Positions 2,806-63,836 of a stretch of 64,000 nucleotides of DNA are shown here, piece after piece. Each line of letters opens with the position of its first letter. Positions within the stretch are counted from its first letter, which is position 1. The notes below the pieces were generated by a model. The model did no database searches, was not told where the DNA came from, and saw only the letters and a list, made by a program, of their open reading frames with translations. The stretch is from the IMG/VR virus record IMGVR_UViG_3300045988_090162; one strand, written 5' to 3'. The stretch is from a virus. Position numbers and translations under genes: made by a program.

Positions 2806-3417
2806 TTAACGCTTATTAAGCGCCAAACCCGTCAACTCAAATAACTTACAATGGGGATGCTTTTCATCTTTATAAGGCTTATACTCAATTAAACCTTTGT
2901 CCGCAAGCCATTCAACGTACTCTTGGGCAAGTTCCCGATTCTTTTTATTATATGGCATATAACACATATCGCAAACATTCTTCATAGAAAAAATATAATT
3001 ACGATGCTTAACGTCATGCTGATAATTATACATCTTGGCTAAGCAACAATAAGCAGTAGTAACCTGAGTAGCATAATCAATCGTCCATTCAAATGGAAAA
3101 TAGTTGAAGAGTAAAGCAGTCTGCTCTTCACCCAAAAGAACAAAATAACTATTATTGACACTATAATTATAATTATAATTATATAGCCCATTTTCTTCAT
3201 CAAACGGAATAATCATTTCATTCTTAATAGCATTTCTTATTAGTTCTTTAAATTCTTCCAAATCATTTCCACCACCACAAATAAAATAAATATCATCAAG
3301 GGTGAAACCATCACGACCATTCTTATCTGCCCAATCTGAATGAGACTGTGCCGCAAGCGAGATAAAAGGATTATATTCCTTGTCCAACAACTTCTTACCT
3401 AAATCTACTCTATACAT
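2806..3417 (-). CDS. hypothetical protein
   Basis: 203-aa ORF, minus strand. Confidence 0.5.
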   Translation of the reverse strand: MYRVDLGKKLLDKEYNPFISLAAQSHSDWADKNGRDGFTLDDIYFICGGGNDLEEFKELIRNAIKNEMIIPFDEENGLYNYNYNYSVNNSYFVLLGEEQTALLFNYFPFEWTIDYATQVTTAYCCLAKMYNYQHDVKHRNYIFSMKNVCDMCYMPYNKKNRELAQEYVEWLADKGLIEYKPYKDEKHPHCKLFELTGLALNKR

Positions 3418-3709
3418 TTCAAACTAACCTCTCTAATTAGAGCATCATAATACATTTATAGTATAACATACTTTCTTATATTTCGTCAAGTAAAAGAAAA
3501 GACCCACGGCCATAGGCCGCAGGTCTTTTACTACGCACTATTTAATTTTTCTATCCTTCTTTTGGATACAAATATATTCAGATTCCCAGTCTTCTTTATG
3601 GCACAGTTTCAAGCATGTCATACACATAATCCATAATTTTAAACTGCCAGTCAATCATAGAGTCTTTTCCTCTTGTATCGGAGAATAACGGATACATATT
3701 ATCACCTAC

Positions 3710-14388: not shown

Positions 14389-14459
14389 AGCGGCGTAAGA
14401 GATTCTAACTCTCACCAAAGGCTTGGAAGGCCTGTATGCTAACATTACACCAACGCCGC
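14389..14459 (-). tRNA. tRNA-Gly (anticodon TCC)
   Basis: acceptor GCGGCGT/ACGCCGC, anticodon loop CTTCCAA, T-arm GAGAG-TTAGAAT-CTCTT; anticodon stem is only 4 bp. Confidence 0.6.
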
Positions 14460-14467
14460 ATATAAGG

Positions 14468-14540
14468 TGTCCACGGGTAGAATTGAACTACCGACACGCA
14501 GATTTTCAGTCTGCTGCTCTACCTACTGAGCTACATGGAC
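14468..14540 (-). tRNA. tRNA-Phe (anticodon GAA)
   Basis: acceptor GTCCATG/CGTGGAC, D-arm GCTC-AGTAGGTA-GAGC, anticodon stem GCAGA/TCTGC with loop CTGAAAA, T-arm GGTAG-TTCAATT-CTACC. Confidence 0.8.
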
Positions 14541-14544
14541 ATGC

Positions 14545-14619
14545 TGGCTTCTCTATTATGACTCGAACATAAACTAACGGAACCAAAATCCGTTGTGCTG
14601 CCAATTACACCATAGAGAA
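14545..14619 (-). tRNA. tRNA-Gln (anticodon TTG), CCA encoded
   Basis: acceptor TTCTCTA/TAGAGAA (perfect), D-arm GTGT-AATTGGCA-GCAC, anticodon stem ACGGA/TCCGT with loop TTTTGGT, T-arm TTATG-TTCGAGT-CATAA, 3' GCCA. Confidence 0.8.
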
Positions 14620-14626
14620 ATTTTCG

Positions 14627-14698
14627 TGCGCTAGTGGAGATTCGAACTCCAATCTCAAGAACGTCACCTTGCAATTTTGCCAGTTAAACTACTAACAC
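14627..14698 (-). tRNA. tRNA-like gene with atypical anticodon arm (possible pseudo-tRNA or non-canonical tRNA)
   Basis: Good acceptor (GTGTTAG/CTAGCGC with two G·U pairs), D-arm GTTT-AACTGGCA-AAAT and T-arm TGGAG-TTCGAAT-CTCCA; the anticodon region folds only as CAAGG/TCTTG around a 6-nt loop TGACGT (or a 4-bp stem with an 8-nt loop). Confidence 0.45.
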
Positions 14699-14819
14699 AC
14701 TACTCACTAGTGGCAATTATTTTAAGGATAATTGCAAAACCTTTTAGTCTAAAGCTAGCTAGGCTTTAGAAGTTGAAAATATAGGGTTAAGCTATTTCCT
14801 ATATTTTCTATATTTTCTA

Positions 14820-14925
14820 TATATCTAGTCGAATGTAAGAACCGTATTTAACCAATTAAACTACCTCGCACTTGCCGTGCGAGAGTGGGAGTCGAACCAA
14901 CATCTGCTCTATGCTCGACTTGATA
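14820..14925 (-). ncRNA. candidate Y RNA-like (YrlA-like) ncRNA with a permuted tRNA-like module
   Basis: Downstream of promoter 14931-14959. The minus strand reads 5' GTCGAGC..., then T-arm GTTGG-TTCGACT-CCCAC, then hairpin CTCGCAC-GGCAA-GTGCGAG (acceptor-like stem closed by a loop), then a D-arm-like GTAGTTTAATTGGTTAAAT, then ...CATTCGAC pairing back to the 5' end. tRNA parts are present but in YrlA-like permuted order. Confidence 0.45.
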
Positions 14926-14930
14926 ACTAT

Positions 14931-14959
14931 ATTATATAAAACTACTTGGCATTTGTCAA
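14931..14959 (-). promoter_or_regulatory. sigma70-like promoter (TTGACA-N17-TATATAAT) driving the Y-like RNA and tRNA operon
   Basis: rc: TTGACAAATGCCAAGTAGTTTTATATAAT; about 90% identical over ~45 nt to the promoter at 20320-20348. Confidence 0.6.
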
Positions 14960-14978
14960 ATTAATTTTATAATTAAAA

Positions 14979-15054
14979 TGGTGGCTCGCCTGAGTCTCGA
15001 ACTCAGAACCGTCAGATTAAAAGTCTGCTACTCTACCAATTGAGTTAACGAGCC
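14979..15054 (-). tRNA. tRNA-Lys (anticodon TTT), CCA encoded
   Basis: acceptor GGCTCGT/GCGAGCC, D-arm ACTC-AATTGGTA-GAGT, anticodon loop CTTTTAA, T-arm CTGAG-TTCGAGA-CTCAG, 3' ACCA. Confidence 0.8.
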
Positions 15055-15071
15055 ATATGCAATCTAGCACG

Positions 15072-15144
15072 CTCTGGCGGCAGGGGTCGAACCTGCGACA
15101 TCTTGATTAACGGTCAAGCGTTCTACCAGCTGAACTACACCAGA
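15072..15144 (-). tRNA. tRNA-Asn (anticodon GTT)
   Basis: acceptor TCTGGTG/CGCCAGA, D-arm GTTC-AGCTGGTA-GAAC, anticodon stem CTTGA/TCAAG with loop CCGTTAA, T-arm GCAGG-TTCGACC-CCTGC. Confidence 0.7.
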
Positions 15145-15208
15145 GTGTACTAGATTATAGGTTAATTATACAATATTTATATGCAATTGTCAAGGAAAAA
15201 GTTAGAGG

Positions 15209-15280
15209 TACGAAATGAAAGAGTCGAACTTTCGTCTTCCCGTTATAAGCAGGATGTCCTAACCGTTGTACGAATTTCGC
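15209..15280 (-). tRNA. tRNA-Ile (anticodon TAT; AUA-decoding, or CAT-like if modified)
   Basis: acceptor GCGAAAT/ATTTCGT, anticodon stem TCCTG/CGGGA with loop CTTATAA, T-arm GAAAG-TTCGACT-CTTTC; D-stem has one mismatch. Confidence 0.6.
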
Positions 15281-15301
15281 ATTACTGTAACTGCTTTTAA
15301 A

Positions 15302-15673
15302 TTATTGGTGAGACTTAAGCCACCTTTGAACATACCAAAGCTGGCCGCGCCCACCACCAATATCATCTTGACCAGCTGGATCAAATGTCCTTACATTATA
15401 ACCCTTTTCTAAGAACTTATCCTGAAACTTCTTAATAACATCTAAGTTCCTAAACGCCGCATCTTTAAGCATGGCGGGAATACCGTCAAACAGCTCATGC
15501 TCACCAAGAGTCTCTAAAGCAACATCAACCAAGTCGGCATCATACATGTCATAAAGCAGGTCAAGATATGCGTCACGGTCAGATTCACTAATCTCCATTG
15601 TATTCCTCTTCGTCATACTCGCCATCATTGCACATCCAATCATTGACGCATACCTTTTCAGGTTCATCTTCAA
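15302..15673 (-). CDS. hypothetical protein
   Basis: 123-aa ORF with the CCAAGAGA cassette upstream (15770). Confidence 0.5.
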   Translation of the reverse strand: MKMNLKRYASMIGCAMMASMTKRNTMEISESDRDAYLDLLYDMYDADLVDVALETLGEHELFDGIPAMLKDAAFRNLDVIKKFQDKFLEKGYNVRTFDPAGQDDIGGGRGQLWYVQRWLKSHQ

Positions 15674-15829
15674 TCAGATGCTTGCGGCAGATGCCTAGAT
15701 ACCAAAGGTCTGTTGACTCATAATATTTGCAATTGCCGCATATATTAGTAGCTTCAACCATTGTTTCTTCTTTCTCTTGGTTTCTTTAACTATATTATAG
15801 CATATCTTTTAACCAAAAGTCAAGAAAAA

Positions 15830-16102
15830 TTAAGTATAAAATTCGTTGAAATCATTAAGCCAATCCAAGAGAGCTAAAGATGTAAGTGGAGTCATGTCCC
15901 ATAACTGCTCAGCACAATAAATGCTAGTATGAGAAGGATTCTTTTCCATAGCATTTACAACAAGCTCATGAAAAACAGCACGGTCAACTTTTTTAAGTTC
16001 ATCGACAATCTTCTCAATATCCTTTTGCTGACTAAGATATACAATGAAATCAAGAATCATAGCAGTCATTTTATTAAGGTGCATACTACACATTTCACTC
16101 AT
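15830..16102 (-). CDS. hypothetical protein (start trimmed to an internal Met)
   Basis: ORF 15830..16207 overlaps the upstream gene; the internal MSEMCSMH start abuts the upstream stop. Confidence 0.4.
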   Translation of the reverse strand: MSEMCSMHLNKMTAMILDFIVYLSQQKDIEKIVDELKKVDRAVFHELVVNAMEKNPSHTSIYCAEQLWDMTPLTSLALLDWLNDFNEFYT

Positions 16103-16397
16103 ATTTCTGTCTCCAAAGTTCACGTGCGGCCATTCGTGCTTCACGACATTCAGGAGAAGAATCATTCTTCCCTGTTTGCTGTAAAACATACTCTTCAATA
16201 AAATCATAACTACTTATATCAGCGACATTTTTTACAAACTGAGGACAGCATGTAGGCCACCAAGCTCCAATACGGCCAATTCTATAAAAGCAAGAGCCAA
16301 ACTTCTCATGGCGTTTACCTTTTGAAGTAACATCGCCTAACCAGTGAACGCACTCACCGCATGTATGGTCAGAGTTTACATCACAAAAAGGAAACAA
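16095..16397 (-). CDS. Cys-rich small protein
   Basis: 100 aa with CxxC pairs (CGEC...CCPQ). Confidence 0.45.
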   Translation of the reverse strand: MFPFCDVNSDHTCGECVHWLGDVTSKGKRHEKFGSCFYRIGRIGAWWPTCCPQFVKNVADISSYDFIEEYVLQQTGKNDSSPECREARMAARELWRQKYE

Positions 16398-16537
16398 GAC
16401 TCGCCGATAGTATCATGGAGCTGGTCTTTGCAGACACAATGAAAGTAACCTTTCTCGCCCCAACGCTTCTTGCTATACTTATGCTGCGGACAATGGCTTA
16501 GACCTTCACATGAGATTTTATATTCATCGTTAGTCAT
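16376..16537 (-). CDS. Cys/His-rich small protein (start trimmed)
   Basis: The internal Met gives a 53-aa CxxxxC...HC..C protein abutting its neighbours. Confidence 0.35.
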   Translation of the reverse strand: MTNDEYKISCEGLSHCPQHKYSKKRWGEKGYFHCVCKDQLHDTIGESCFLFVM

Positions 16538-16724
16538 GCTTCTCCAATTTAGGATGAATTGCCCATTCGCCGCACCTATCTCCGCTTTGCGGTGAAGGAT
16601 GAACAGTATAAACATTATAATCTGTTGGGTCAATAATTACATTGGGTGGGAAACGATAGCAACTGCAATTTTTATAAAATCTGCAATTGCCGCAGATACG
16701 CTGGACCTTATGCTTGACTTCCAT
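16530..16724 (-). CDS. Cys-rich small protein (start trimmed; GGAGAG RBS)
   Basis: Internal MEVKHKVQRICGNCRFYKNCSC start with RBS GGAGAGTAAAATG, immediately upstream of the phosphoesterase. Confidence 0.4.
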   Translation of the reverse strand: MEVKHKVQRICGNCRFYKNCSCYRFPPNVIIDPTDYNVYTVHPSPQSGDRCGEWAIHPKLEKHD

Positions 16725-16725
16725 T

Positions 16726-17322
16726 TTACTCTCCAAGCTCAATCTTTTTCTGCTGGACATCGAGCCAAATATCATGAATGCTGACAGGAGTAAGATTATT
16801 CGTGTCAACGCCTACGTGATATGTCCAATCAACAAGACCCTTGGGAGCCGCGTCATGGACATGACCATACAGAATGACATTGGCGCTGTCTCCACGCATT
16901 TCCTCGGGACGCTCATGAATCATAATGAAACTGACATCGTTGTAATCAAGGCAAGACACCTTGTTTTCGATAATCCAGCCGAGCTTTTCCATTTCTGCAA
17001 TGCGCTTCTTGGTATCATGATTGCCGGGAATCACATGAATCTTGCCGTTGAGACGAGAGCCATATTTAGCTACAGTCTCAAGTGGTCCCATGAAGCAATC
17101 ACCAAGATGATAGACAGTATCATCAGGAGATACAACGGAATTCCAGTTTTTGACAATAGCTTCATTCATTTCTTTGACCGTATCAAACGGACGCGACTCT
17201 GGACAAAACTTGATAATATTCTCATGTTGAAAATGAGTATCAGAAATAACAAAAACACTCATTGAATCTCCTTTCGATTTCTTAAATATATTATAACATA
17301 ATATATAGCCAATAGTCAACAA
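16726..17322 (-). CDS. calcineurin-like metallophosphoesterase (protein/polynucleotide phosphatase-like)
   Basis: Motifs ISDTHF (GDxHG-like), GDCFMG (GDxxDRG-like), GNHD, and GHVH. Confidence 0.75.
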   Translation of the reverse strand: MLTIGYILCYNIFKKSKGDSMSVFVISDTHFQHENIIKFCPESRPFDTVKEMNEAIVKNWNSVVSPDDTVYHLGDCFMGPLETVAKYGSRLNGKIHVIPGNHDTKKRIAEMEKLGWIIENKVSCLDYNDVSFIMIHERPEEMRGDSANVILYGHVHDAAPKGLVDWTYHVGVDTNNLTPVSIHDIWLDVQQKKIELGE

Positions 17323-17358
17323 AAAAATAGGGACTCAAAAGAGTCCCTACAAAAATAT
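17322..17358. terminator. bidirectional rho-independent terminator
   Basis: AAAAAAATAGGGACTCaaaaGAGTCCCTACAAAAATA. Confidence 0.65.
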
Positions 17359-17420
17359 CAATGTGTGCGAAAAAGTTAGATTCAGACTATTTTAATTGCC
17401 CTATGAAGTAACTGAATCTT
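17347..17420. repeat. hairpin-repeat unit 1 (ATGCG...TTAGATTCAG...CTGAATCTTAA...CGCAT family)
   Basis: Outer inverted ends TGCG/CGCA enclose an inner inverted repeat TTAGATTCAG / CTGAATCTTAA. Confidence 0.5.
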
Positions 17421-17699
17421 AATCACGCACATTTGCGCCTATATAGCTCGCACACTATATAGGCGAGAAAGGGGTTTACAAATAATGGCAAGGAAAAAGT
17501 GTAAAGAGTGTAGGTGGGGGTTGCCTCTTTCTAATGAAAGCTGCTCTTATTTAAACATATAACGAAGTAACTCTTTACTAATCACTTGCCGCACAAGAGA
17601 AAGCGATACGGAAATAGGTGTTTCAGTTTGAGTAATCAGCTCAGAATGGAGATTTGAAGTATCTGAAACGTTATCACGTATCGTCTACTTTAATAAAAT

Positions 17700-17810
17700 G
17701 AATGCGGAAAAGCCTAAATCAGTGAAATGTGTACCGACACAGAGCAGGAGCCGAACCTGCAAGCGCATTTTTCCAGAATGAAGTAACTGATTTATCATCA
17801 CGCATTATAG
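17700..17810. repeat. hairpin-repeat unit 2 (covariant stem CCTAAATCAGT / ACTGATTTATCA)
   Basis: Same outer ATGCGGAAAAG ... TCACGCAT frame as the other units, with compensatory changes in the inner stem. Confidence 0.5.
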
Positions 17811-17819
17811 TAAATAAAA

Positions 17820-17905
17820 TAAATGCGGAAAAGTTAGATTCAGTGTCTAATTATTAACATACCAAAATTAATGAAGTAACTGAATCTTAATCACGCATTT
17901 AATAA
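17820..17905. repeat. hairpin-repeat unit 3
   Basis: AATGCGGAAAAGTTAGATTCAG...GAAGTAACTGAATCTTAATCACGCAT. Confidence 0.5.
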
Positions 17906-17956
17906 ACGTTGGTGCCGCATCTAGGTACCGCCCCTAGCCAGTCTAAGACAGAAGAT

Positions 17957-18322
17957 TTACAAGTGTACGATATACTGATATGTATCAAAATATCCACTGT
18001 GGCACTCAGTTATATCAGAATATAACTTTATATGGGATTTATTCGTAATTTTGTTTACTGGTATAGAATACATTAAACCAGTTGTACCATTTAAACAAAA
18101 TAATAAATCTACAGGATGGTTTGTTACATTATCATATTCTTTTCCATTAGTGCCACCACAACTTCTTAAAGATATAGTATTATCTTTTGACGTTGTACAT
18201 TTGCATTGTACAGTTTGAAAGACGCCATCTTTTTCAATAATTAAATCATACCACTGTGTATCAGACAAAGGAAGAGAGACAGTATAGCCATTAGAACCAT
18301 AATATGCAATAGCCACTGACAT
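17957..18322 (-). CDS. hypothetical protein
   Basis: 121-aa ORF. Confidence 0.5.
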   Translation of the reverse strand: MSVAIAYYGSNGYTVSLPLSDTQWYDLIIEKDGVFQTVQCKCTTSKDNTISLRSCGGTNGKEYDNVTNHPVDLLFCLNGTTGLMYSIPVNKITNKSHIKLYSDITECHSGYFDTYQYIVHL

Positions 18323-18384
18323 TCCAGCCCTACTTCTATTTTTATTATTGTCTAATAGCCTTTTCCTCCTTTATGCTTCTAGTA

Positions 18385-18482
18385 TGCCTTGTCTTGGGTT
18401 CGGGAGTCGGACCCGAATGCCTTGCGGCGCTATTTTTTGAGAATAGTGTGTATGCCAGTTCCACCAACCCAAGATAAGGCAT
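18385..18482. repeat. long inverted repeat (18-bp arms) enclosing a GC-rich hairpin
   Basis: GTATGCCTTGTCTTGGGT ... ACCCAAGATAAGGCATAC, with inner hairpin TTCGGGAGTCGGACCCGAA. Confidence 0.55.
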
Positions 18483-18494
18483 ACTAACATGCCT

Positions 18495-18947
18495 TTAATT
18501 TGTCTGTTTCTGAATCCCAAGCTGGTCAAAAAACTCGTCTGGAATAAACTTGTCATCCAAAGGCTGATAATCTTTCCAGATAATCAGAGGATACCAAGTC
18601 TTTGACCACTCGGTAAATTCAGCGAATTCATCATTATATCCAAAAGAAACAGCAAAACCAAACCAGCTTGGTTTGACATGCGGGAAAGTCTTTTTGATAA
18701 TTCCCTCGTTGTCAACAAAATCGCCGATACGACCGCAAATAGTACAAACGTTCCTATAAGCATAAGTCCATGTGCCAGCATATTTATCAAAGTAATTGAT
18801 AACAATACTCTTATCGTAAGTGTGTTTATGATTGGCTTTCTTCACTGTCTTTTTCTTTTTACGAGCGGGAGCATTGGCCGCATCGTCGGGAATATAAGCA
18901 TATTTAGTTGCCAATACTTCACCTTTATAGGAATACGAGGACATCAA
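18495..18947 (-). CDS. hypothetical protein
   Basis: 150-aa ORF with a KKKK stretch. Confidence 0.5.
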   Translation of the reverse strand: MMSSYSYKGEVLATKYAYIPDDAANAPARKKKKTVKKANHKHTYDKSIVINYFDKYAGTWTYAYRNVCTICGRIGDFVDNEGIIKKTFPHVKPSWFGFAVSFGYNDEFAEFTEWSKTWYPLIIWKDYQPLDDKFIPDEFFDQLGIQKQTN

Positions 18948-18992
18948 AGCTCCTTTTCTACTTTTGGATAAACTGAGTAGCTATCTACTCTG

Positions 18993-19064
18993 CTGGAATG
19001 GTAGGACTCGAACCTACAACATTTTGATTAACGGTTAAACGCTCTACCATTGAGCTACACTCCA
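18993..19064 (-). tRNA. tRNA, anticodon GTT (Asn-like); anticodon stem carries an A·C mismatch
   Basis: acceptor TGGAGTG/CATTCCA, D-arm GCTC-AATGGTA-GAGC, anticodon loop CCGTTAA, T-arm GTAGG-TTCGAGT-CCTAC. Confidence 0.55.
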
Positions 19065-19093
19065 GCAGGGTAGATAAGCCACACTTTGTTCTA

Positions 19094-19162
19094 TTGGAGT
19101 GACAAGACTCGAACTTGCGACACGTTGAGTTAACAACATTCTACCAACTGAATTACACTCCA
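19094..19162 (-). tRNA. tRNA-like gene (69 nt) with atypical anticodon arm (6-nt loop TTAACT)
   Basis: acceptor TGGAGTG/CACTCCA, D-arm ATTC-AGTTGGTA-GAAT and T-arm GCAAG-TTCGAGT-CTTGT are fine; the anticodon region folds only as TGTTG/CAACG around TTAACT. Confidence 0.4.
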
Positions 19163-19384
19163 ATAGAATGGATTATTTAGATAAAAGAGCGTTATGAAGA
19201 TAATCGTCAGCTTCTTCAAACGTATCAAAGCTCTTGATAATTTCAAAACGAACAACAGAGCAATCAGTGTTGACACGAATCGAATAGATTCCGCAAGTCT
19301 TTTCACGACAAATGACGAACTGCTTCATAACAAACCTCTTTCTCTCTTGGTCTATATATATTATATAATATTATAAACCAAAAG

Positions 19385-19495
19385 TCAAGAAAAAATATGC
19401 GGAAAAATTGGGGTCAGACTAACAAATGCAGCGTACCGCATTTAAAATATACCATAAAATCTTCATGAAGTAACTGAACCCTCATCACGCATAAT
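19385..19495. repeat. hairpin-repeat unit 4 (covariant stem TTGGGGTCAG / CTGAACCCTCA)
   Basis: ATGCGGAAAAATTGGGGTCAG ... GAAGTAACTGAACCCTCATCACGCAT. Confidence 0.45.
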
Positions 19496-19502
19496 AAATA
19501 AA

Positions 19503-19691
19503 TTAGCTAAGAAAGAATGACACCCTGCTTTGCCTTGTTAATCTTGCGGCGAAGTTTGCGCATGATGCCGACATTCTCTGAGTTCTTACCTTTGCGATTG
19601 ATAAGCATCTGATAACGCTGCTCCATCGTCTCGATTGACTGTGCCATACTTCCTTACCTTTCTCTTGGTTTACTACACTAGAAGAAAACAA
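19503..19691 (-). CDS. small basic protein (Arg/Lys-rich)
   Basis: 62 aa, MAQSIETMEQRYQ...RKLRRKINKAKQG; preceded by a ~130-nt leader ending in CCAAGAGAAAGG, with promoter TTGACA-N17-GATATAAT at ~19805-19835. Confidence 0.45.
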   Translation of the reverse strand: MFSSSVVNQEKGKEVWHSQSRRWSSVIRCLSIAKVRTQRMSASCANFAARLTRQSRVSFFLS

Positions 19692-20224
19692 ATGGTCAAC
19701 CTAACGGCGTACTAAGCATTACACTTCTGGGTGTTGGCAATAAGCCGCAGGGTCACTGGTTTGTTGACGGTACTGTTGACTATCCTTTTTCCCTTTCCTT
19801 CTAGAAATATTATATCAAATTATTCAACTATTTGTCAAATAATTTTTTATAGCAAAAATTGGTCGCGAGGTGTTTCTGCTGCCGAAACTTAACAGAGCTT
19901 ATGAGACTCCGTGAGATACTGACCTCCCACCCGCAATTAAAGTAGTAATTTTCACATCTGCCGAGGTTTGAAAACTACCAAAATATACCAGATTCCTCTT
20001 CCCCTAGGCGCTTCTTTTCAAGTATGCGCTGGCCCGCATTGTCTACGGCTACAGAGACGGCATATATAAAATCTTGCAAGCAAGATAATATAATCACGTG
20101 GACGGTTTCAAACTGGGAAAACCGCCAACCCTTTAATCTATAGTCCCTGCAAAAGACTATAGAAGTCGGGAGACATTTACCTTGCAGCGATAACCTCTCC
20201 CCAGGCATTGGATATAACACAATC

Positions 20225-20305
20225 GCTAGGTGCTATTCTCACCAATTAAACTAACCGCCGTTAACTCGGCCTGTCCGGGAGTCGAACCCACATCTTCACC
20301 ATCAC
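20225..20305 (-). ncRNA. candidate Y RNA-like ncRNA, paralogue of 14820..14925 (may extend 3'-ward to ~19850)
   Basis: Begins just downstream of promoter 20320-20348. The minus strand reads GATGTGGGTTCGACTCCCGG (T-arm-like), then ACAG-GCCG-AGTTAA-CGGC (hairpin), then GGTTAGTTTAATTGGTGAG (D-arm-like). Same module order and near-identical promoter/5' leader as the 14.9 kb element. Confidence 0.4.
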
Positions 20306-20319
20306 GATTTGTTAACTAT

Positions 20320-20348
20320 ATTATATAAAATTACTCGGCGTTTGTCAA
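20320..20348 (-). promoter_or_regulatory. sigma70-like promoter (TTGACA-N17-TATATAAT), paralogue of 14931-14959
   Basis: rc: TTGACAAACGCCGAGTAATTTTATATAAT. Confidence 0.6.
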
Positions 20349-20437
20349 GTAATTTTTTAACTAGGCTGGCTCTTTCTGTGCTGCCCAGAAATTTTATGAT
20401 TCAGAGTCATATGTTCTACTGTTGAACTAAGAGCCAA

Positions 20438-20513
20438 TGGTCTGCTCAGCTCGACTTGAACGAGCAACCCCAAGTTCCCAAAACTTGAGCGCTACCAATT
20501 GCGCTATGAGCAG
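20438..20513 (-). tRNA. tRNA-Pro (anticodon TGG), CCA encoded
   Basis: acceptor CTGCTCA/TGAGCAG (perfect), D-arm GCGC-AATTGGTA-GCGC, anticodon stem CAAGT/ACTTG with loop TTTGGGA, T-arm GCTCG-TTCAAGT-CGAGC, 3' ACCA. Confidence 0.8.
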
Positions 20514-20675
20514 AAAATGGACAAATTTATATAGCGACTGCCCAAACCGCTAAATTGACTTGGGATAAGCACAGACGAATTCAAAGTTCGCTCTACTTAT
20601 CACTTAGAGAGTGTCTAAGATTAGCACTCTATTTTAACAATATAATACATATATTGTTAAAATACAACACTAATT

Positions 20676-21314
20676 TTATATATACACCCAATGAAAACCA
20701 TATGCCGTCTTTTCTTTATTTTCACAAACTTGCTTAATATGCCTTGAAATTCCTTGTGTTGATTTATTTGTAGTGTAGTTATTATCAAAAAGCCAAGCGG
20801 ATGCTTCGTGCAACGATTGAAAAATCTTGTCTTTTTCTATTAAACATACACTTTTAGAATATCGTTCTTTAGAAAGAACATTAGATTGCAGTATTTCTAC
20901 ATTGCATTGTTTACATGCGTACCTAACCGTATCTGCACAACAATGAAAATGTTTTACTACTTTTATCGTATCATGTGTTTCAGTATGCATATCAGCTATT
21001 TTTTGATAATCATAAAAAGGTTTTCCGTCTCCACCTTTTGTAGCATTATATCCATTACAGCCATATGTATTTAGCTTAAAAATCCAATATTCTTCCTGTT
21101 TTGCCGCATCTTCAACGGAGCATTTTTCTAATTGCTCAACATGAAAATGCTCAATGCCATATTTATTCATAGCAGAATACAGAGGACGTTTTTCACATCT
21201 TTCTTTTCTGCTATCTGAAATATGCTCTTTAAATCTTTTGCTGATTGACTTATTAGTTTTTCCAACATATTGTTTTCCGTTAACATCGTTGGTAATTACA
21301 TAAATATAAGACAT
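20676..21314 (-). CDS. GIY-YIG homing endonuclease (free-standing)
   Basis: N-terminal SYIYVITNDVNGKQYVGKT, RFKEH and YGIEHF (GIY-YIG core) with a C-terminal DNA-binding extension. Confidence 0.75.
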   Translation of the reverse strand: MSYIYVITNDVNGKQYVGKTNKSISKRFKEHISDSRKERCEKRPLYSAMNKYGIEHFHVEQLEKCSVEDAAKQEEYWIFKLNTYGCNGYNATKGGDGKPFYDYQKIADMHTETHDTIKVVKHFHCCADTVRYACKQCNVEILQSNVLSKERYSKSVCLIEKDKIFQSLHEASAWLFDNNYTTNKSTQGISRHIKQVCENKEKTAYGFHWVYI

Positions 21315-21582
21315 TTTATCACCAACTTAAATAATAAATGGAGCCAACTGACAGTGCTGCCCTGTCTGCTTCGCTTTACAAGAGCGATGTATTACTGTTA
21401 TACTAAGCTGGCTTTACCAAAAGAAAAATGAGCCTGCAATACTCTAGAAATCTTGCAGGCTCTAACACCACTATTACAATATAATAGTTGCGCAACAAAA
21501 ATTATAACTTTTTGCCCAGAACTTTTATTTTGTAACTAAAGTTATTATACCATATTAGTATAACGTCTGTCAAGAACTTTTT

Positions 21583-55884: not shown

Positions 55885-56159
55885 ATGTGCTTTACGAAGT
55901 TATTGTGCCTGAGCATATGGATAAGCAACTTAAAATAGGTCGGCCAGGATATTATGAAGACGCTGGATTCTTTTCTGGTTATCGTTATGTCCCAGCAGTT
56001 TCCTGCAACTTTGGAGCCTGTAATAGTTTCTGAAAAGCGATATATTTTTGAAAAAAGAAAAAAGGCTAAAAAGTTTTGTTTAGAGCATAATTATCCGTTT
56101 GAATATATTCATAAACGAAAATGCTAAATATAACATTCTACATATAACGAAGGACGGTG

Positions 56160-59100
56160 ATGCCAATGACAGTGCCGCGATTTGATATTCACAATCACAC
56201 GCACTACTCCTAACCAACTTACGACTTATTGATTCAACTGTCAAACCAAAAGAACTAATTGATAGAGCTATAGAATTAGGTCTTGCGGGAATCGCAATCA
56301 CCGACCATGAGTCATTAGGTGGACACGTAGAGATTGACCGCATTCAAGAGGAATATAAAGATAAGTATCCTGATTTCAAAATCGTTCGCGGCAATGAAAT
56401 TTATCTTACAGACACACGAGATTCGGGTCAATATTACTATCACTTTGTTCTCTTAGCCTTAGATGCTATTGGTCATAAGATGCTACGTGAGCTATCTTCT
56501 ACTGCTTGGATTAACAGCTATTTTGACCGAGGAATGGAACGTGTACCTACTCTAAAGTCAGACCTTGCGGCCATTGTCGAAAAATATGGAAAAGGTCACC
56601 TACACGGTAGCTGTGCCTGCCTAGCAGGAGAAGTAAATCATAATCTTAATCTTATGATTCAAGCTGAAAAACAAGGAGACACCGCACAAGTTAAAGCATA
56701 TCATAAGAATATTGTAATTTTTATCAAGTGGTGTGTATCAATCTTTGGCAAAGATTATTTCTCTTTAGAAGTAGCTCCTGGTCGTAGCGAAGAACAATTC
56801 GCTGTTAATTCCAGAATGAATTCTTTATCTAAAGTATTTAATCTTCCAATCGTGCTAGGATGTGATACTCATTATCTAAAAAAAGAAGATAGATATGTAC
56901 ACAAGGCTTTCCTTAATTCTAAAGGTGGAGAGCGTGAAGTAGATTCATTTTATGAATATTGTTATCTACAGTCTGAAAAAGAGATTATAGAAAATCTTGA
57001 TGGCACAGGTCTTGATTATGAAGAACTATGCGCCAACTCAATGAAGATTCTTGATAAATGCCAGTATTATACTTTATATCATAAACAACAAGTGCCGCAA
57101 GTAGAAGTTCCTTCTTATCCAAAAGAAGAAAAGAACCATCATTTCTATGATACGGATAAATATCCTACGCTTGATTATCTTATGCACTCCGATAATCCGC
57201 AAGAACGTTATTGGATAAATTATTGCCAGAATGAATTAAACAAAAAAGGATTAAATAATGAAACGTATCTTGCGAGGTTAGAGGAAGAAGCAGACATCAA
57301 CAAAGTTATTGGTGACAAACTTGAGACTTGTATGTTTGCTTACCCTATTTTCCTACAGCATTACATTAATCTCTTTTGGGAATGCGGCTCAACAGTTGGC
57401 GCTGGTCGAGGGTCAGCCTGTTCTGGTCTTAACCATTGGCTTTTAGGAGTTACACAACTAGACCCAGTTGTCAATAGTCTTCCTTATTGGAGATATTCTA
57501 ATAAAGAGCGCATCGAATTAGGTGATATTGATATAGACTTAGCCCCGTCTAAACGTGAACTAGTCTTTGAGAAAATCAGAGAAGAGCGTGGTCAATTAGG
57601 ATGCGTACAGGTCTGTACGTATGGCACAGTTACTTCTAAAGCGGCTGTAAAAATTGCCTGTCGAGGATACCGTTCAGAAAAATATCCAGATGGTATTGAG
57701 CTAGATGAAGCTGAATACCTTTCTTCTTTAATTCCTTCTGAACGTGGCTTTGTTTGGCCTTTATCTGATTGTTTTTTTGGCAACGAAGAGAAGAAACGTA
57801 AACCTAATAAAACCTTTGTCCAAGAGGTAAACAAGTTTCCCCGTCTACAAGAAATCTTATTAAATATCTGCGGCCTTGTTACACAACGAGCTATTCATGC
57901 TTCTGGTGTTAACTTTTACGGAGAAGACCCATACCAGACGGCTTGCTTTATGAAAGCTAAGAACGGCGCTATTATTACACAATATTCTCTAGCGGATGCA
58001 GAGTACTGCGGTGATGTGAAGCTCGATTTCCTTGTGACAGAAGTGCAGGATGTAATTACTCAGTGCCTTAATCTCTTACAGGAGAATGGTAAGATTGAAA
58101 CTGGTCTAACACTTCGTCAAATGTATGATAAGTACCTGCATCCTACCATGTTGCCGTTACACGATGAAAAGTTGTGGAAAGCAGCTGTCTCTGGCAAGGT
58201 CTTGAAATTTTTCCAATTTGACACACAGGTCGGCGGTCAGACAATTAAGCTCTTAAAGCCGCACACTCCACTTGAAATGGCGAACTGCAATTCTATTATG
58301 CGTCTCATGGCTAGCGAACAAGGTGATGAAACACCAACAGAACGATACAAACGCATGAAAGATGATATGTCGCAATGGTACGCGGAAATGGATAGGTGGG
58401 GTCTTTCAAAAGAAGAACAAAAAAGTCTAGAGAAATATTATCTGCCAACGTATGCGGCACCTGCTCAGCAGGAAGACATGATGATAATCCTAATGGAAGT
58501 CTGCGGCTTTTCTTTATCTGAGTCGAATTTTGCAAGAAAAGTTTGTGCAAAAAAGAAGATGGACAAGATTCCTGAGTTGAGAAAAATGGTATTACAAGGT
58601 GCTCCAAATGAGAATCTTGGCAAGTATATTTGGGAGACTGCTATCAAACCACAGATGGGCTACTCATTTTCTCGAATTCATTCTCTTGCTTATTCCTATA
58701 TTGGCCTTCAAACGGTCTATTTAGCTACCTATTTTCCTGTCGTATATTGGAATACAGCTTGTCTTCGAGTCGATGCTGGTCTTGATGAAGATGCCGCATC
58801 TAACTATGGTAAAATTGCTAAAGCAATTGGTAATATGATTAACAATGGTGTTACAGTAAAGCCAGTCAATATCAACAAATCTGGTTATCTATTTGAGCCA
58901 GACGAAGAAGATAATGCTATTCTATATGGAATGAAATCTTTAAACGGAGTTGGCGGCGAAGTTGTTTCAAGAATTATTGCAAATCGTCCATACAATTCGT
59001 TTCAAGATTTTCTAGATAAAAATAATGAAAATAAGACTACAGTTTTAGCTCTTATTAAAGGCGGTGCTTTTGATTCTTTCGATAGCCGCAAAAATATTAT

Positions 59101-60013
59101 GAAACAATATATTGAGATTGTAAGTAATCCTAAAAAGCGTATTACAATGCAAAACTTTAAATCTTTAATTGATTATAAGCTCATTCCAAAAGAATTAAAG
59201 TTCCAAAAGCAAGTGTTCAATTTCGATAAGACAATGAAAAAACAATGCAAATATACAACAGAAGAATTTGATTTAAGCAAATCAGATATACATTATAAGT
59301 TTTATAATAAATATTTTGATACTGATAATCTATATATTAAAAACAATTCTATATGTCTAAATAAAAAGACTTGGAAAAAAGAATATAATAAAGTAATGCT
59401 CGCTGCAAAAAACTACATCCAAGAGAACAAAGAAGAGTTATTACAGAAGTTAAATAGGAAGCTATTCTTAGAACAATGGAATACATACGCGGCAGGTACA
59501 TATTCAACTTGGGAAATGGATGCTCTTGGATATTATTACCACAAGCATGAATTATTAAATGTTGATAAATCTATTTATAATATAGTATCATATAATAGTC
59601 TGCCAACAATTCCGCCTACTGATTATGTATTTAAGCGTGGCGATAAAGAGATTAAAATTCCTAAGACCTATAGAATTATGGGTACAGTAGTCGGCAAGAA
59701 TAATACAAAAGGACAAGTTGATATTCTTACAACTGATTCTGGCGTTGTAACTGTTAAGTTTGCATTAGATTATTTTGCAAAATATAATCGCCGTGTAAGT
59801 GAAAATGTAAATGGTGAAAATAAGGTCATGGAACAAGGATGGTTTCAAAAAGGTGCCTTAATTGTAGTCAATGGCTATCGAAACGGTGATATGTTTAGGG
59901 CAAAGAAATACAAGAAGACTAATTCACATCAACTATATAAAATCACGAAAGTGAATAAAGACGGTACCATAGAAATGACTAATAGCCGCTATGGCGAAAA
60001 TGTTGACAATTAA
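56160..60013 (+). CDS. DNA polymerase III alpha subunit (DnaE-like, family C) with an N-terminal frame discontinuity
   Basis: RBS AAGGACGG then ATG at 56160. Frame 0 encodes MPMTVPRFDIHNHTHYS (PHP motif I) and then hits TAA. Frame 2 continues from 56225 as LIDSTVKPKELIDRAIELGLAGIAITDHES... (PHP motif II) through 60013, including GRGSACSGLNHWLLGVTQLDP. Removing the 14 nt at 56211-56224 restores one continuous PHP domain. Confidence 0.6.
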
Positions 60014-60888: not shown

Positions 60889-62088
60889 TTGACTAAATAT
60901 ATTACAAAGCGAAATGGAAATAAAGTAGAGTTCGATATTTCTAAGATTGAAAATGCAGTATTTCGTGCGGCATATGATGTTTCTGGTACTCTTGGATGGA
61001 CATGGACGTTTTGTCATGAGATTGCAAGAGACATTGCAAATGACTTTGAAAAAGCCGAGTATTATCATGACGGTATGACAGTAGAGGAGATTCAGGATGC
61101 TGTTGAAGAACTACTCATGGGCGATTTTCCGCATGTTGCAAAGTCATATATGATTTATCGTTATGAACACCAGATTGCACGCCAGAAACATAATGATGCT
61201 GAAATTCTTGATATGATTAAGAATGACCCAGAAAGTTACTGGGCAACAGAGAATAGCAATAAAAACGCTAAGCTCGTTACTGTGCAACGAGACTATCTTG
61301 CTGGCATTACAAGCACAGATATTGCTCGTAATTATATTTTCCCTAAGAAAGTAATTGAAGCTCACGACGCTGGTATTTGCCATCAACACGATATGGATTA
61401 TATGGCACAATCAACTCTTCATAACTGTGACCTTATCAATCTAGAAGACATGCTGCAAAATGGCACAGTCATTAACAATGTGCGTATCAACAAACCGCAT
61501 CGTCTTTTAACAGCTATGACAGTAACAACGCAAATTATGGCTAGTGTTGCGGCCAATTCTTATGGTGGAGAATCTATTACATTAACTCATTTAGCACCTT
61601 TCGTTCGTGATAGCTACAATATCTTTAAAAACAAATATAAAGATGAAGATATTTCAGATGAATTAAAAGAAAAGTTTGCATTGGCAGATTTAAAAAAAGA
61701 AATTGCTGATTCAGTGCAGACTTTTAATTATCAAATTTCAACGTTGTTTACATTAAATGGACAGGCGCCATTTTGCTCCCTGTTCATGTATATTGGCGAG
61801 ACAGAAGAATATAAGAAAGAATTAATTCTTCTTATTGAAGAGTTTTTAAAGCAACGAGAAAAAGGTATGCCAAATCGTCAAGGTGTATATGTTACGCAAG
61901 CATTTCCAAAGTTGTTATATGTTCTTGAAGAAGATAATTATAAACCCGGAACCAAATATTGGAATGTAACTAAAAAAGCAGTTGAATGTTCTGCTAAGCG
62001 CCTAACTCCTGATTATATTAGTGAAAAGGTAATGAAGCAAATCAAGGTAGATGCAAATGGTGAAGGCCATTGTTTTCCTTGCATGGGT
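60889..62088 (+). CDS. nrdD: anaerobic ribonucleoside-triphosphate reductase NrdD, exon 1
   Basis: N-terminal ATP-cone (ITKRNGNKVEFDISKIENAV); exon ends ...CFPCMG at U62088. Confidence 0.7.
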
Positions 62089-62801
62089 AAGCGTAAACTA
62101 TAGCCTATGTAAAATCTTTTGAATTCGGATAGGACTTAGATTTAAGTTGAGTCCGAACTAATATACATATTTAAAATCATAGAAAGGAGTTCTTTCTATG
62201 GAAAAATCAACACAATATAATAATATTTCTGTAACAGATGATGGTAAAGTATACAAAACAAAAAAGAATGGTAACAAAATAGAGCTTTGCCAATGGGTTG
62301 ACAATGTTGGGTATAAACAAGTAAAAAGTACAGATGATAAACAAGCTATTTATTTACGTGTGCATAGATTAGTCGCAGAAACTTTTATCCCAAATCCACA
62401 AAATTTACCGCAAGTTAATCATAAAGATGGAAACAAATTAAATAATGTGGTAGAAAATTTAGAGTGGTGTAACAACAAAGAAAATACTCAGCATGGATAT
62501 AATCACAATTTATATAAATCAACAGTTAGATGTCCAGTTAAAGCTACTAATAAAGAAAGTAAAATGGAATATATATTTCCAAGTATTCGTAAATGTGCAG
62601 AAGAACTAAAATTAAACAGAAAAACTATTACAGCTATTTTAAAGCATGAAAAAACAAATAATTATGATTATGATTTTGAATATGTATAATGTGTATCGAC
62701 TATTCCGAAAGGAAGTAGAGATAATAATTATCTCGAAGTAAGAAGACTATCCAATAGGATAGATGATATAGTCAGTGCGGCAGGTGACTGCCGACAACAT
62801 G
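62089..62801 (+). mobile_element. group I intron in nrdD carrying an HNH homing-endonuclease ORF
   Basis: 5' exon ends in U and the intron ends in G (62801); P1 guide GCCTATG (62103-09) pairs with exon CATGGGT; the exon junction restores CMG|CRSFLSPY. Confidence 0.7.
62198..62689 (+). CDS. HNH homing endonuclease (intron-encoded)
   Basis: [13 protein letters not shown]...[27 protein letters not shown] (HNH_3-type); RBS AAAGGAG. Confidence 0.75.
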
Positions 62802-63836
62802 TGTAGAAGTTTCCTGTCTCCATATATAGATGAAAATGGTAAACCCAAATATTATGGACGATTCAATTGCGGCGTTTCCAGCCTTAATCTTCCAGATACA
62901 GCTTTTGCCGCACAAGAAGAACTTAAATATGATACAGATAAATCACAAGAGCATCTTTTTGAAATCTTTTTCAAATTATTGGATGAACGAGCTGAAATCT
63001 GTCATGCCGGACTAAAAGTCCGCGTTGATAGACTTTCAAAAACAAAAGCTGGCGTAGCTCCAATCCTATGGGTAGATGGTGCTTTAGCTAGACTAGACCC
63101 AGAAGATACTCTAAACAAGTTAGTTCATAATGGATATGCTACAGTCTCGCTTGGATATAATGGCGGTAACGAAGCCATTAAAATTCTTATTGGAGAAGAC
63201 AATTTCACCAAGAATGGACAAGAACTGATGCTACGAATTCTCAAGTTCTTGACCAATAAGTGTGAAGAATGGAAGCAAGCAGAGAACGTTGGGTATTCAC
63301 TTTATGCGTCTCCAGCAGAGTCATTGTGTTACAAGTTTGCAACTAAGACTAAAGAACGTTATCCAAACCAGTTCAAGAAACTGTTTGGGAACAAAAAGTA
63401 TTTTGAAAATTCTTATCATATCCCAAGTTCTCAACCAATTGACCCCTTTTCTAAGATTGAACTTGAAGGCGAATTTCAAAAGTATTCAGTTGGTGGTTGC
63501 CTAAGCTATGTAGAGAGTTCTGACGTATCTAAAAATATATCCGTTCTGTATCCAATTTTAGAGTGTATTTATAATAATATTATGTATTGTGAAATCAATA
63601 CAAAAACTTCTTATTGCCATGTATGCGGCGAATCACAAACTATTGACGTTCACAAAGATGAAGAAGGAAATACATGGTGGGAATGCTCTAATTGTGGTAA
63701 TACAGACACAGATAAAATGGATGTTGCTGCACGTACTTGCGGATATGTTGGAGTCAACTTCTGGAACGATGGCAAGACTCAAGAAATTGCTTCTCGTTAT
63801 AAGCATATTGATGACCATGAGATTGGTGAAGAATGA
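62802..63836 (+). CDS. nrdD: anaerobic ribonucleoside-triphosphate reductase NrdD, exon 2
   Basis: CRSFLSPY active-site region, C-terminal zinc ribbon CHVCG...CSNCG, and glycyl-radical motif RTCGYVG. Confidence 0.7.
   Translation, partial: CRSFLSPYIDENGKPKYYGRFNCGVSSLNLPDTAFAAQEELKYDTDKSQEHLFEIFFKLLDERAEICHAGLKVRVDRLSKTKAGVAPILWVDGALARLDPEDTLNKLVHNGYATVSLGYNGGNEAIKILIGEDNFTKNGQELMLRILKFLTNKCEEWKQAENVGYSLYASPAESLCYKFATKTKERYPNQFKKLFGNKKYFENSYHIPSSQPIDPFSKIELEGEFQKYSVGGCLSYVESSDVSKNISVLYPILECIYNNIMYCEINTKTSYCHVCGESQTIDVHKDEEGNTWWECSNCGNTDTDKMDVAARTCGYVGVNFWNDGKTQEIASRYKHIDDHEIGEE

Follow-up and report, generated by a model that had tools for sequence, protein, structure and literature searches.

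The window analysed here, a 64-kb stretch of DNA from a gut phage, presents nrdD, the gene of the anaerobic ribonucleotide reductase, as two open reading frames with an HNH endonuclease ORF between them, which raises the question of whether the gene is broken or whether its two parts are exons that are joined by splicing. The upstream frame (ORF 60889..62103, + strand) terminates in ...GEGHCFPCMGKRKL; it reads ...HCFPCMG and then KRKL, and its stop thus lies four codons inside the insert. The downstream frame is open from 62775 (MRQVTADNMCRSFLSPY...) and includes, on the exon 2 side, ...NMCRSFLSPY. When the exons are joined from 62088 to 62802, they form an in-frame ORF of 2235 nt (744 aa) that contains CMGCRSFLSPY, and the joined NrdD aligns colinearly and without a break with T4 NrdD (PDB 1H78, E 1.7e-98), CMGCRSFLSPY facing T4 PMGCRSFLSVW. 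The original prediction had joined U62088 to U62802 in the same way and had named the same opening of exon 2, and both hold; it had ended exon 1 at HCFPCMG*, where the peptide is indeed found and the stop comes four codons later. The bases at the splice sites are T at 62088 and G at 62801, and the predicted spliced junction reads ...TGCATGGGT|TGTAGAAGT....

Exon 1 (60889..62088, +) starts with TTG, carries the ATP-cone and the N-terminal half of the protein and ends ...CFPCMG with U62088 as its last base. Exon 2 (62802..63836, +), delimited by Pfam and by the T4 NrdD alignment, opens at the TGT codon and carries the glycyl-radical domain. The Pfam NRDD model is split, with positions 1-265 on the upstream ORF and 263-562 on the downstream ORF, while ATP-cone is found on the first ORF and Gly_radical on the third. 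The cysteine that directly follows the junction corresponds to T4 Cys290 (1H78 alignment numbering), which we take, following the T4 literature, to be the thiyl-radical cysteine. The insertion point therefore falls between the Gly codon GGU and the Cys290-equivalent codon, in phase 0 (MG|CRSF). Two other explanations for an interrupted frame were set aside: an intein is ruled out by the in-frame stops four codons into the insert, and a frameshift or translational bypass by the 713-nt gap.

The HNH homing endonuclease gene (62198..62689, +) encodes 163 aa and is preceded by a ribosome binding site, AAGGAG (62184-62189, +), 8 nt upstream of its ATG. Its product matches Pfam HNH_3 over residues 54-97 (35.3 bits, cutoff 24.8; 8.8e-9) and PHROG 59 (HNH endonuclease, 5e-41); matches to the I-HmuI NUMOD-like family PF22083 (25.1 bits, 1.3e-5) and to NUMOD1 (18.7 bits) lie under their cutoffs of 27 and 22.8, respectively. 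Residues 10-162 align with residues 13-170 of I-HmuI (PDB 1U3E, E 1.6e-11), including the HNH motif, which aligns with I-HmuI ..VDHKDGNKDNNLSTNLRW.., and the C-terminal helix-turn-helix region. Judged by these alignments, the ORF is a full-length I-HmuI-like HNH endonuclease, in agreement with the original prediction of a complete enzyme with its own ribosome binding site. Neither a second HNH relative nor a second intron of the family was found in the 64-kb window.

The predicted structure of the insert is that of a group I intron (62089..62801, +; 713 nt, IA2-like, no P2, omega-G at 62801) with a complete IA2 core of the T4 td/sunY type, made up of P1, P10, P3-P9 and P7.1/P7.2, all on the + strand. 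P1 pairs the exon sequence CATGGGT (62082-88) with the guide GCCTATG (62103-09), which begins 14 nt into the insert, and forms 7 bp with a U62088.G62103 wobble. Just 5' of this guide, CTATA (62098-102) pairs with the first 5 nt of exon 2, TGTAG (62802-06), as a P10 of 5 bp. A joiner, TAAAA, precedes the 5' strand of P3 (TCTTTT 62115-20 / AGAAGA 62741-46, placed by the position rule described below). The P4-P5 hairpin (62124..62157), seen both in the MFE fold and in compensatory changes, consists of P4 (TTCGGA/TCCGAA) and P5 (ACTTA/TAAGT) with J4/5 TAGG and J5/4 TGAG. The 3' catalytic domain (62694..62801) holds P7 (GACTAT 62698-703 / ATAGTC 62768-73), P7.1 (TCC-GAAA-GGA, 62704-13), P7.2 (GAGATAA-TAA-TTATCTC, 62718-34), P8 (CTATCC-AATA-GGATAG, 62747-62), P9 (CGGCAG-GTGA-CTGCCG, 62778-93) and a 3' tail, ACAACATG, that ends at G62801. 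P7 is made by the R (..CGACUA) and S (GAUAUAGUC) elements, and the order P7, P7.1, P7.2, P3', P8, P7' is the IA arrangement, P7.1 and P7.2 being colinear with those of T4 td and sunY. The group I hallmarks listed in the original prediction, namely the exon-terminal U62088, G62801 and a guide 14 nt into the intron that pairs with exon CATGGGT, are thus all present, and all helices from P3 to P9 could be placed, P3 to P7 having been the part on which that prediction had hinged.

The endonuclease gene sits in the loop of P6 (ATACATATT 62163-71 / AATATGTAT 62679-87), which encloses the whole endonuclease cassette and is the least certain of the helices. Its 3' strand overlaps the ORF codons E-Y-V and the stop. 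J6/7, AATGTGTATC (TGTGTATC), is unusually long at 10 nt; the P6 region is uncertain, its stem being supplied by ORF-flanking sequence and J6/7 being long. The structure model was settled by comparison with three related introns (L138, L164 and L137, from the survey described below) and with the T4 td and sunY introns (T4 record). A first hand-drawn model had placed P3' at AAAGGA, which lies in the P7.1 hairpin, and P6 at TATACA/TGTGTA, a helix that is broken in the related copy L010; comparison with L164, L138, td and sunY corrected it, TGTGTATC becoming J6/7 and AGAAGA becoming P3'.

The core was then examined by folding and by comparative tests. Unconstrained MFE folding of the 3' 112 nt recovered P7, P7.1, P7.2, P8 and P9 (z = -4.34), and folding of the 5' 98 nt recovered P1 and P4-P5 (z = -3.8). 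As a structure-blind test we used a MAFFT alignment of 17 introns, either ORF-less or ORF-deleted (A3). The window-derived P1, P4, P5, P7 and P9 were 90.9% paired across this alignment, versus 77.7% in column shuffles (0/500 as high), and pairing fell to 30-38% when the 3' partners were slid by 1-3 columns. Fourteen pairs had changed on both sides (P4 4/6, P5 3/4). Pair 7 of P1 was CG in 7 cases, UG in 6 and UA in 2: the window has C-G, L010 has U-A (exon TATGGGT, guide GCCCATA), and 10 of 12 family cases combine A at guide position 7 with exon U. P10 tracks the choice of codons at the start of exon 2, CGACA or CGACG guides occurring with TGTCG and CTGTA with TGCAG.

Because MAFFT misaligns P7.1/P7.2 and moves P3' by one column in the window lineage, P3 was tested by a position rule, and P7.1, P7.2 and P8 by a covariance model. 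The rule pairs the six nucleotides that follow TAAAA with the hexamer on the 5' side of the conserved C in front of P8. Under it, 22 of 23 introns have a complete P3 (6/6 bp), built on 11 different 5' hexamers, and in a fixed-site swap test the mean was 5.92 bp with the intron's own partner versus 3.39 bp with swapped ones. A scan-based swap test over the whole segment gave little contrast (5.96 vs 5.29), and the fixed-site test was used instead.

For the covariance test, the 3' domains of 15 introns from outside the window lineage served to build a model (R1). Searched on both strands of the 64-kb window, R1 gave a single match, at 62694-62801 (+), which was full length (63.1 bits, E 8e-12) and free of non-standard pairs. 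The same model scored 81.5 bits on T4 sunY and 58.1 bits on T4 td, both experimentally established self-splicing introns, and the score of the window is in the same range. An alignment of 56 R1 matches had 96.5% of its cells paired and compensatory changes at 22 of 27 pairs, compared with 30-37% pairing in slid controls; being fitted to the model, this alignment leans towards the structure, a bias of which the MAFFT test is free. Compensatory changes are thus seen in every helix but two, P7, which is invariant, and P6, which is specific to the window.

General models of group I introns responded less clearly. An Rfam search at E<=1 of 61500-63400, ORF included, and of seven related loci gave no match, and RF00028 run on 62670-62830 alone gave a partial match of 14.7 bits (E 0.09), under its gathering threshold of 50 bits, in which UCGACUA (R element), GAUGAUAUAGUC (S element) and the P9 hairpin were aligned. 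We attribute the failure of RF00028 on the window intron to its reduced periphery and to the insertion of 523 nt in P6, and not to a missing core. The ORF-less introns L137 and L183, which occupy the same site, scored 70.5 and 69.6 bits on RF00028, over the gathering score of 50. The covariance search to which the original prediction had pointed was thus divided in outcome: RF00028 stayed under threshold on the window, while R1 matched it at 63.1 bits and RF00028 passed on L137 and L183.

We next considered how the insert is distributed among other phages. In an IMG/VR search with the HNH protein, the same 713-nt insert turned up on seven contigs from this phage group (L004-L009 and L011). The insert of L010 is ~95% identical and lies at the same MG|C boundary, but in an NrdD whose protein sequence is only 38%/29% identical; the C-terminus of the L010 endonuclease is apparently frameshifted. 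Six further loci (L013-L018) carry inserts of 845-864 nt at the MG|C site, with an HNH protein 56-57% identical and NrdDs 25-50% identical. A pattern scan (ATGGGT, gap, GCYYATRTAAAAY) returned 119 loci, and 63 distinct inserts at the MG|C boundary were extracted, 59 of them with a confident 3' end (190-1125 nt). Since the scan pattern fixed ATGGGT, the guide GCYYATR and TAAAA, and since a G before the Cys codon was required, the family gives no independent evidence on pairs 1-6 of P1, on the terminal U or on the omega-G. By this count, at least 59 distinct predicted introns occupy one site in phage nrdD genes that have diverged widely. Against GenBank phages, megablast with 61700-63200 gave no match, and a distant blastn with the intron minus its ORF yielded no more than short, partial matches, in Vibrio and Lak phages; as far as these comparisons reach, the region has no close cultured relative.

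The insert is not fixed at this site. Uninterrupted CFPCMGCRSFLSPY, for example TGTTTCCCTTGTATGGGTTGTAGAAGTTTCCTTTCTCCATA, is found at 44 IMG/VR loci; these intron-less alleles belong to more distant phages (~67-73% nt identity), and their Gly codon is mostly GGC, GGG or GGA, not GGT. A much closer relative, L122, has a 190-nt ORF-less insert that equals the window intron minus the block ATACATATT...ORF...AATATGTA. The intron parts that it shares with the window are 96-99% identical, and its joined NrdD is 96.9% identical with the same junction. This short form scores 21.4 bits on RF00028 (E 0.0014, sub-threshold) and apparently lacks P6 altogether, which makes its own activity uncertain. The ORF and the P6 stem seem to travel together: the homologous ORF of L013-L018 likewise has ..FEYV over a P6 3' strand and then reads on through J6/7 and the P7 5' strand. 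From this shared overlap of ORF and P6 strand in the window and in L013-L018, we conclude that ORF and P6 stem behave as one cassette, a cassette that is found in different ribozyme backbones and is cleanly missing in L122.

Movement of the intron is visible in several comparisons. A near-identical intron in the very different NrdD of L010 indicates horizontal transfer. The intron shows 96-100% identity across L004-L009 and L011, but in L007, L009 and L011 the identity of exon 1 is no more than 81-94%. Moreover, identity in these three rises to 94% in the 50 nt adjoining the insert, versus 82-84% just upstream, the pattern expected from co-conversion, and the ORF-less twin L122 and the L010 copy both point to homing. 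The central claim of the original prediction, that a group I intron with an HNH endonuclease lies in nrdD, is therefore borne out by the covarying core, the sole R1 match and the ORF-less and horizontally moved copies.

A different account of the locus would dispense with splicing, a free-standing HNH gene having split nrdD into genes in pieces whose two polypeptides reassemble. Functional split ribonucleotide reductase genes are known in phages, and in Aeromonas phage Aeh1 nrdA-a and nrdA-b are split around mobE and give two polypeptides (PMC3653736), a case like the present one in having an HNH endonuclease gene inside a ribonucleotide reductase gene. The exon 1 frame does stop four codons into the insert, and directly before the Cys codon there is an ATG (62799-62801), and 11 nt before that an AGGTGA. 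However, AGGTGA is loop and stem of the conserved P9 hairpin, and 19 of the 59 family members end in ACG, CCG, AAG or TAG and so have no start codon before exon 2. Aeh1 nrdA has no intron, whereas the non-coding flanks of the ORF in the window hold a covarying ribozyme core, and the 190-nt ORF-less L122 insert still breaks the nrdD frame in a locus that has no endonuclease gene. The break would moreover sit in the active-site finger loop, beside the catalytic cysteine. Taken together, we consider it extremely improbable that NrdD is made as two polypeptides here.

A related concern is decay, in which the intron would splice so inefficiently that nrdD is a pseudogene or is poorly expressed, or in which the endonuclease would be inactive and the intron inherited by vertical descent only. 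The core is in fact reduced, with no P2, a short P7.1, a P6 that comes from the ORF cassette and a long J6/7; the L010 copy has an apparently frameshifted endonuclease, and intron endonucleases often decay, as the record annotation of T4 I-TevIII illustrates. Yet all core helices are intact and the R1 alignment is free of non-standard pairs, intron and ORF are 96-100% conserved in L004-L009 and L011 while exon identity has fallen to 81-94%, long open frames persist in both exons and NrdD is fully conserved, its Cys and glycyl-radical motifs included, and the ORF can be aligned end to end with I-HmuI. A splicing-dead relic is unlikely because the core is intact and is conserved above the level of the exons, and decay in either form seems to us very unlikely.

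Altogether, 62089-62801 is almost certainly a mobile, self-splicing IA2 group I intron in a phage nrdD, with an HNH endonuclease gene in its P6 loop, and the two nrdD ORFs and the HNH ORF are best annotated as one spliced gene with an endonuclease encoded in its intron and should not be taken for a broken gene. We infer catalysis, the specificity of cleavage and homing as follows. The splicing steps follow standard group I chemistry. The pre-mRNA would fold into P1, formed by exon CAUGGGU and guide GCCUAUG, and the P3-P9 core; a free guanosine held in P7 would attack after U62088; P10 (CUAUA with exon UGUAG) would align exon 2; the 3'-OH of U62088 would then attack after omega-G62801, and the ligated mRNA would encode the 744-aa NrdD. 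By analogy with I-HmuI, I-TwoI and I-BasI, the HNH enzyme may nick or cut the intron-less nrdD of co-infecting phages near the conserved site, after which recombinational repair would copy the intron, with some flanking exon, into the recipient, that is, homing.

The closest comparison is the sunY intron of T4, which resides in the same host gene and belongs to the same ribozyme lineage (IA2, no P2), with P7.1 and P7.2 in both. The two differ little in their 5' region and guide (TAACGTAAGTCAAGCTCATGTAAAATC in T4 sunY, AAGCGTAAACTATAGCCTATGTAAAATC in the window), and the T4 sunY guide, GCTCATGTAAAATC, is the commonest form in the window's intron family. Nevertheless, the T4 intron is inserted ~110 codons upstream (..QAYE|YEVNTLF, phase 1, exon TATGAGT|), its exon 1 ending at gene nt 538 (aa ~180). 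The ORF of the T4 intron lies 3' of P9 and encodes I-TevII, a GIY-YIG enzyme, in contrast to the HNH ORF in the P6 loop here, and the T4 intron has P9.1/P9.2 extensions that the window's intron lacks. The 'T4 nrdD/sunY-like arrangement' of the original prediction is thus right for the ribozyme (R1 on sunY, 81.5 bits) and wrong for the insertion site, the endonuclease family and the position of the ORF. As part of the more tentative reading given at the end, the near-identity of the guides (exon AUGAGU in T4, AUGGGU here) would fit an ectopic transposition between the two nrdD sites.

The T4 td intron (I-TevI) is colinear with the window's intron element by element over the core: CGACTAT, P7.1, AGTAG, P7.2, GAAxxx, P3', P8, GATATAGTC and P9 with a GTGA loop. 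Its ORF is likewise looped out from P6, with the stop codon just upstream of P7; it differs in its host gene (thymidylate synthase), its GIY-YIG ORF, the presence of P2 and P9.1/9.2 and its length, 1017 nt by our extraction. The endonuclease itself resembles I-HmuI and I-HmuII (SPO1 and SP82 DNA polymerase introns), I-TwoI (Twort nrdE) and I-BasI. These too are small HNH enzymes of phage group I introns that interrupt a DNA-metabolism gene where a codon is highly conserved, and the window's protein may share their C-terminal NUMOD/HTH module; sequence identity to this group is low, and host gene and target site are other ones. Group I introns have been reported in nrdD of Lactococcus phage 949 (PMC3653736) and, with metatranscriptomic evidence of splicing, in nrdD of the human-gut 'Jug' jumbo phages (PMC12880540). 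In these other phage groups, too, short group I introns break up nrdD, whether or not they carry an endonuclease gene.

The intron described here is a familiar kind of selfish element and leaves the understanding of group I introns unchanged. It adds a well-supported case of selfish introns at the most conserved codons of ribonucleotide reductase, here that of the catalytic cysteine. More tentatively, the Gly|Cys290 boundary may be a homing hot spot, not described before and densely occupied in phages of the gut and the environment, at which one sunY-related IA2 lineage, spread over NrdDs only 25-50% identical to each other, has repeatedly gained, lost and exchanged a P6 HNH cassette and has been pared down to the 190-nt form; we hold this wider reading as possible rather than probable. 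Provided that it still splices, this short form, with no P2 and no obvious P6, would rank with the smallest natural group I introns. The dozens of related introns at this site, this minimal form included, may merit a short note, and a series of at least 59 variants with or without an endonuclease would be useful for studies of intron/endonuclease co-evolution, of the minimal size of a group I ribozyme and of new nicking specificities. As a side observation that touches the exchange of cassettes, it is the cassette's own coding sequence (F-E-Y-V) that provides the 3' strand of P6.

R1, a covariance model of the intron 3' domain built from 15 family introns outside the window lineage, also matched further group I 3' domains in loci that already hold an nrdD intron at the MG|C site, the boundary between the Gly codon and the catalytic Cys codon. 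A second 3' domain was matched at L097 226-341, L137 1858-1978, L092 2723-2870, L164 5411-5516, L120 10234-10391 and L143 12486-12582, and both a second and a third were matched in L084 (3029-3150 and 8058-8164). Several of the phages with the MG|C intron thus have more than one intron of this kind, within nrdD or close to it.

The exon/guide pairing of the T4 nrdD intron (sunY) is also close to that of the window's family: sunY combines the 5' exon sequence TATGAGT with the guide GCTCATG, while the commonest family pair is ATGGGT with GCTCATG, so that a single base pair separates the two (T4 nrdD vs window 62082-62114). The T4 and MG|C insertion sites in nrdD may be linked via ectopic transposition of one intron lineage. 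Another 44 nrdD alleles (L203-L246) are intron-less and encode an uninterrupted CFPCMGCRSF. The Gly codon is GGT in only three of these and GGC in most. Group I introns require a U at the 5' splice site, and a Gly codon other than GGT may affect the endonuclease target as well. The rarity of GGT in intron-less alleles might reflect immunity to invasion, or it might be mere codon drift.

An ORF-less version of the window's intron, 190 nt long, was found on the plus strand of L122 (9912-10101). It lacks the whole P6 stem-loop, and the interval from P4' to P7 consists of CTAATTAAATGCGTATC only; if still splicing, it would be remarkably short for a group I intron, having neither P2 nor P6. In the horizontally transferred copy at L010, the endonuclease ORF (3001-3470) appears frameshifted near the C-terminus: one frame ends in ..KNKQL and a stop, and the rest of the C-terminus lies in another frame, possibly a decaying endonuclease inside an otherwise intact intron. 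A further HNH protein, 59% identical to that of the window, is encoded at L012 3001-3471, a locus where no NrdD similarity was found; this relative of the endonuclease thus has other genomic surroundings, and its gene either stands alone or belongs to some other intron.

Elsewhere in the window, a cluster of 12 tRNA genes and the replication and repair genes lie at 14389-21412 (minus strand) and 25275-55120. The latter include GyrB/GyrA-like topoisomerase II, ATP-dependent DNA ligase, RecJ and Toprim primase, together with a T4 Rnl1-type RNA ligase, a TROVE/Ro-like protein and guanylate kinase, a set typical of a large phage. In GenBank, the nearest relatives by NrdD (~55% identity) are 'Bacteriophage sp.' contigs from human faeces that carry no annotation. 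The DnaE-like DNA polymerase III alpha gene (ORF 56480..60013) seemingly starts in another frame, within a region (~56120-56480) that gave no Rfam match: the start of the PHP motif is carried upstream by MPMTVPRFDIHNHTHYS, ending in a stop, and the main frame is open upstream of its own ATG (..LLLTNLRLIDSTVKPKELIDRAIELGLAGIAITDHESLGG..). Near TACTCCTAACCAAC (~56170) one frame is shifted by 1 nt relative to the other. A programmed -1 frameshift or a short bypass could account for this, as could an indel or an error in the assembly.
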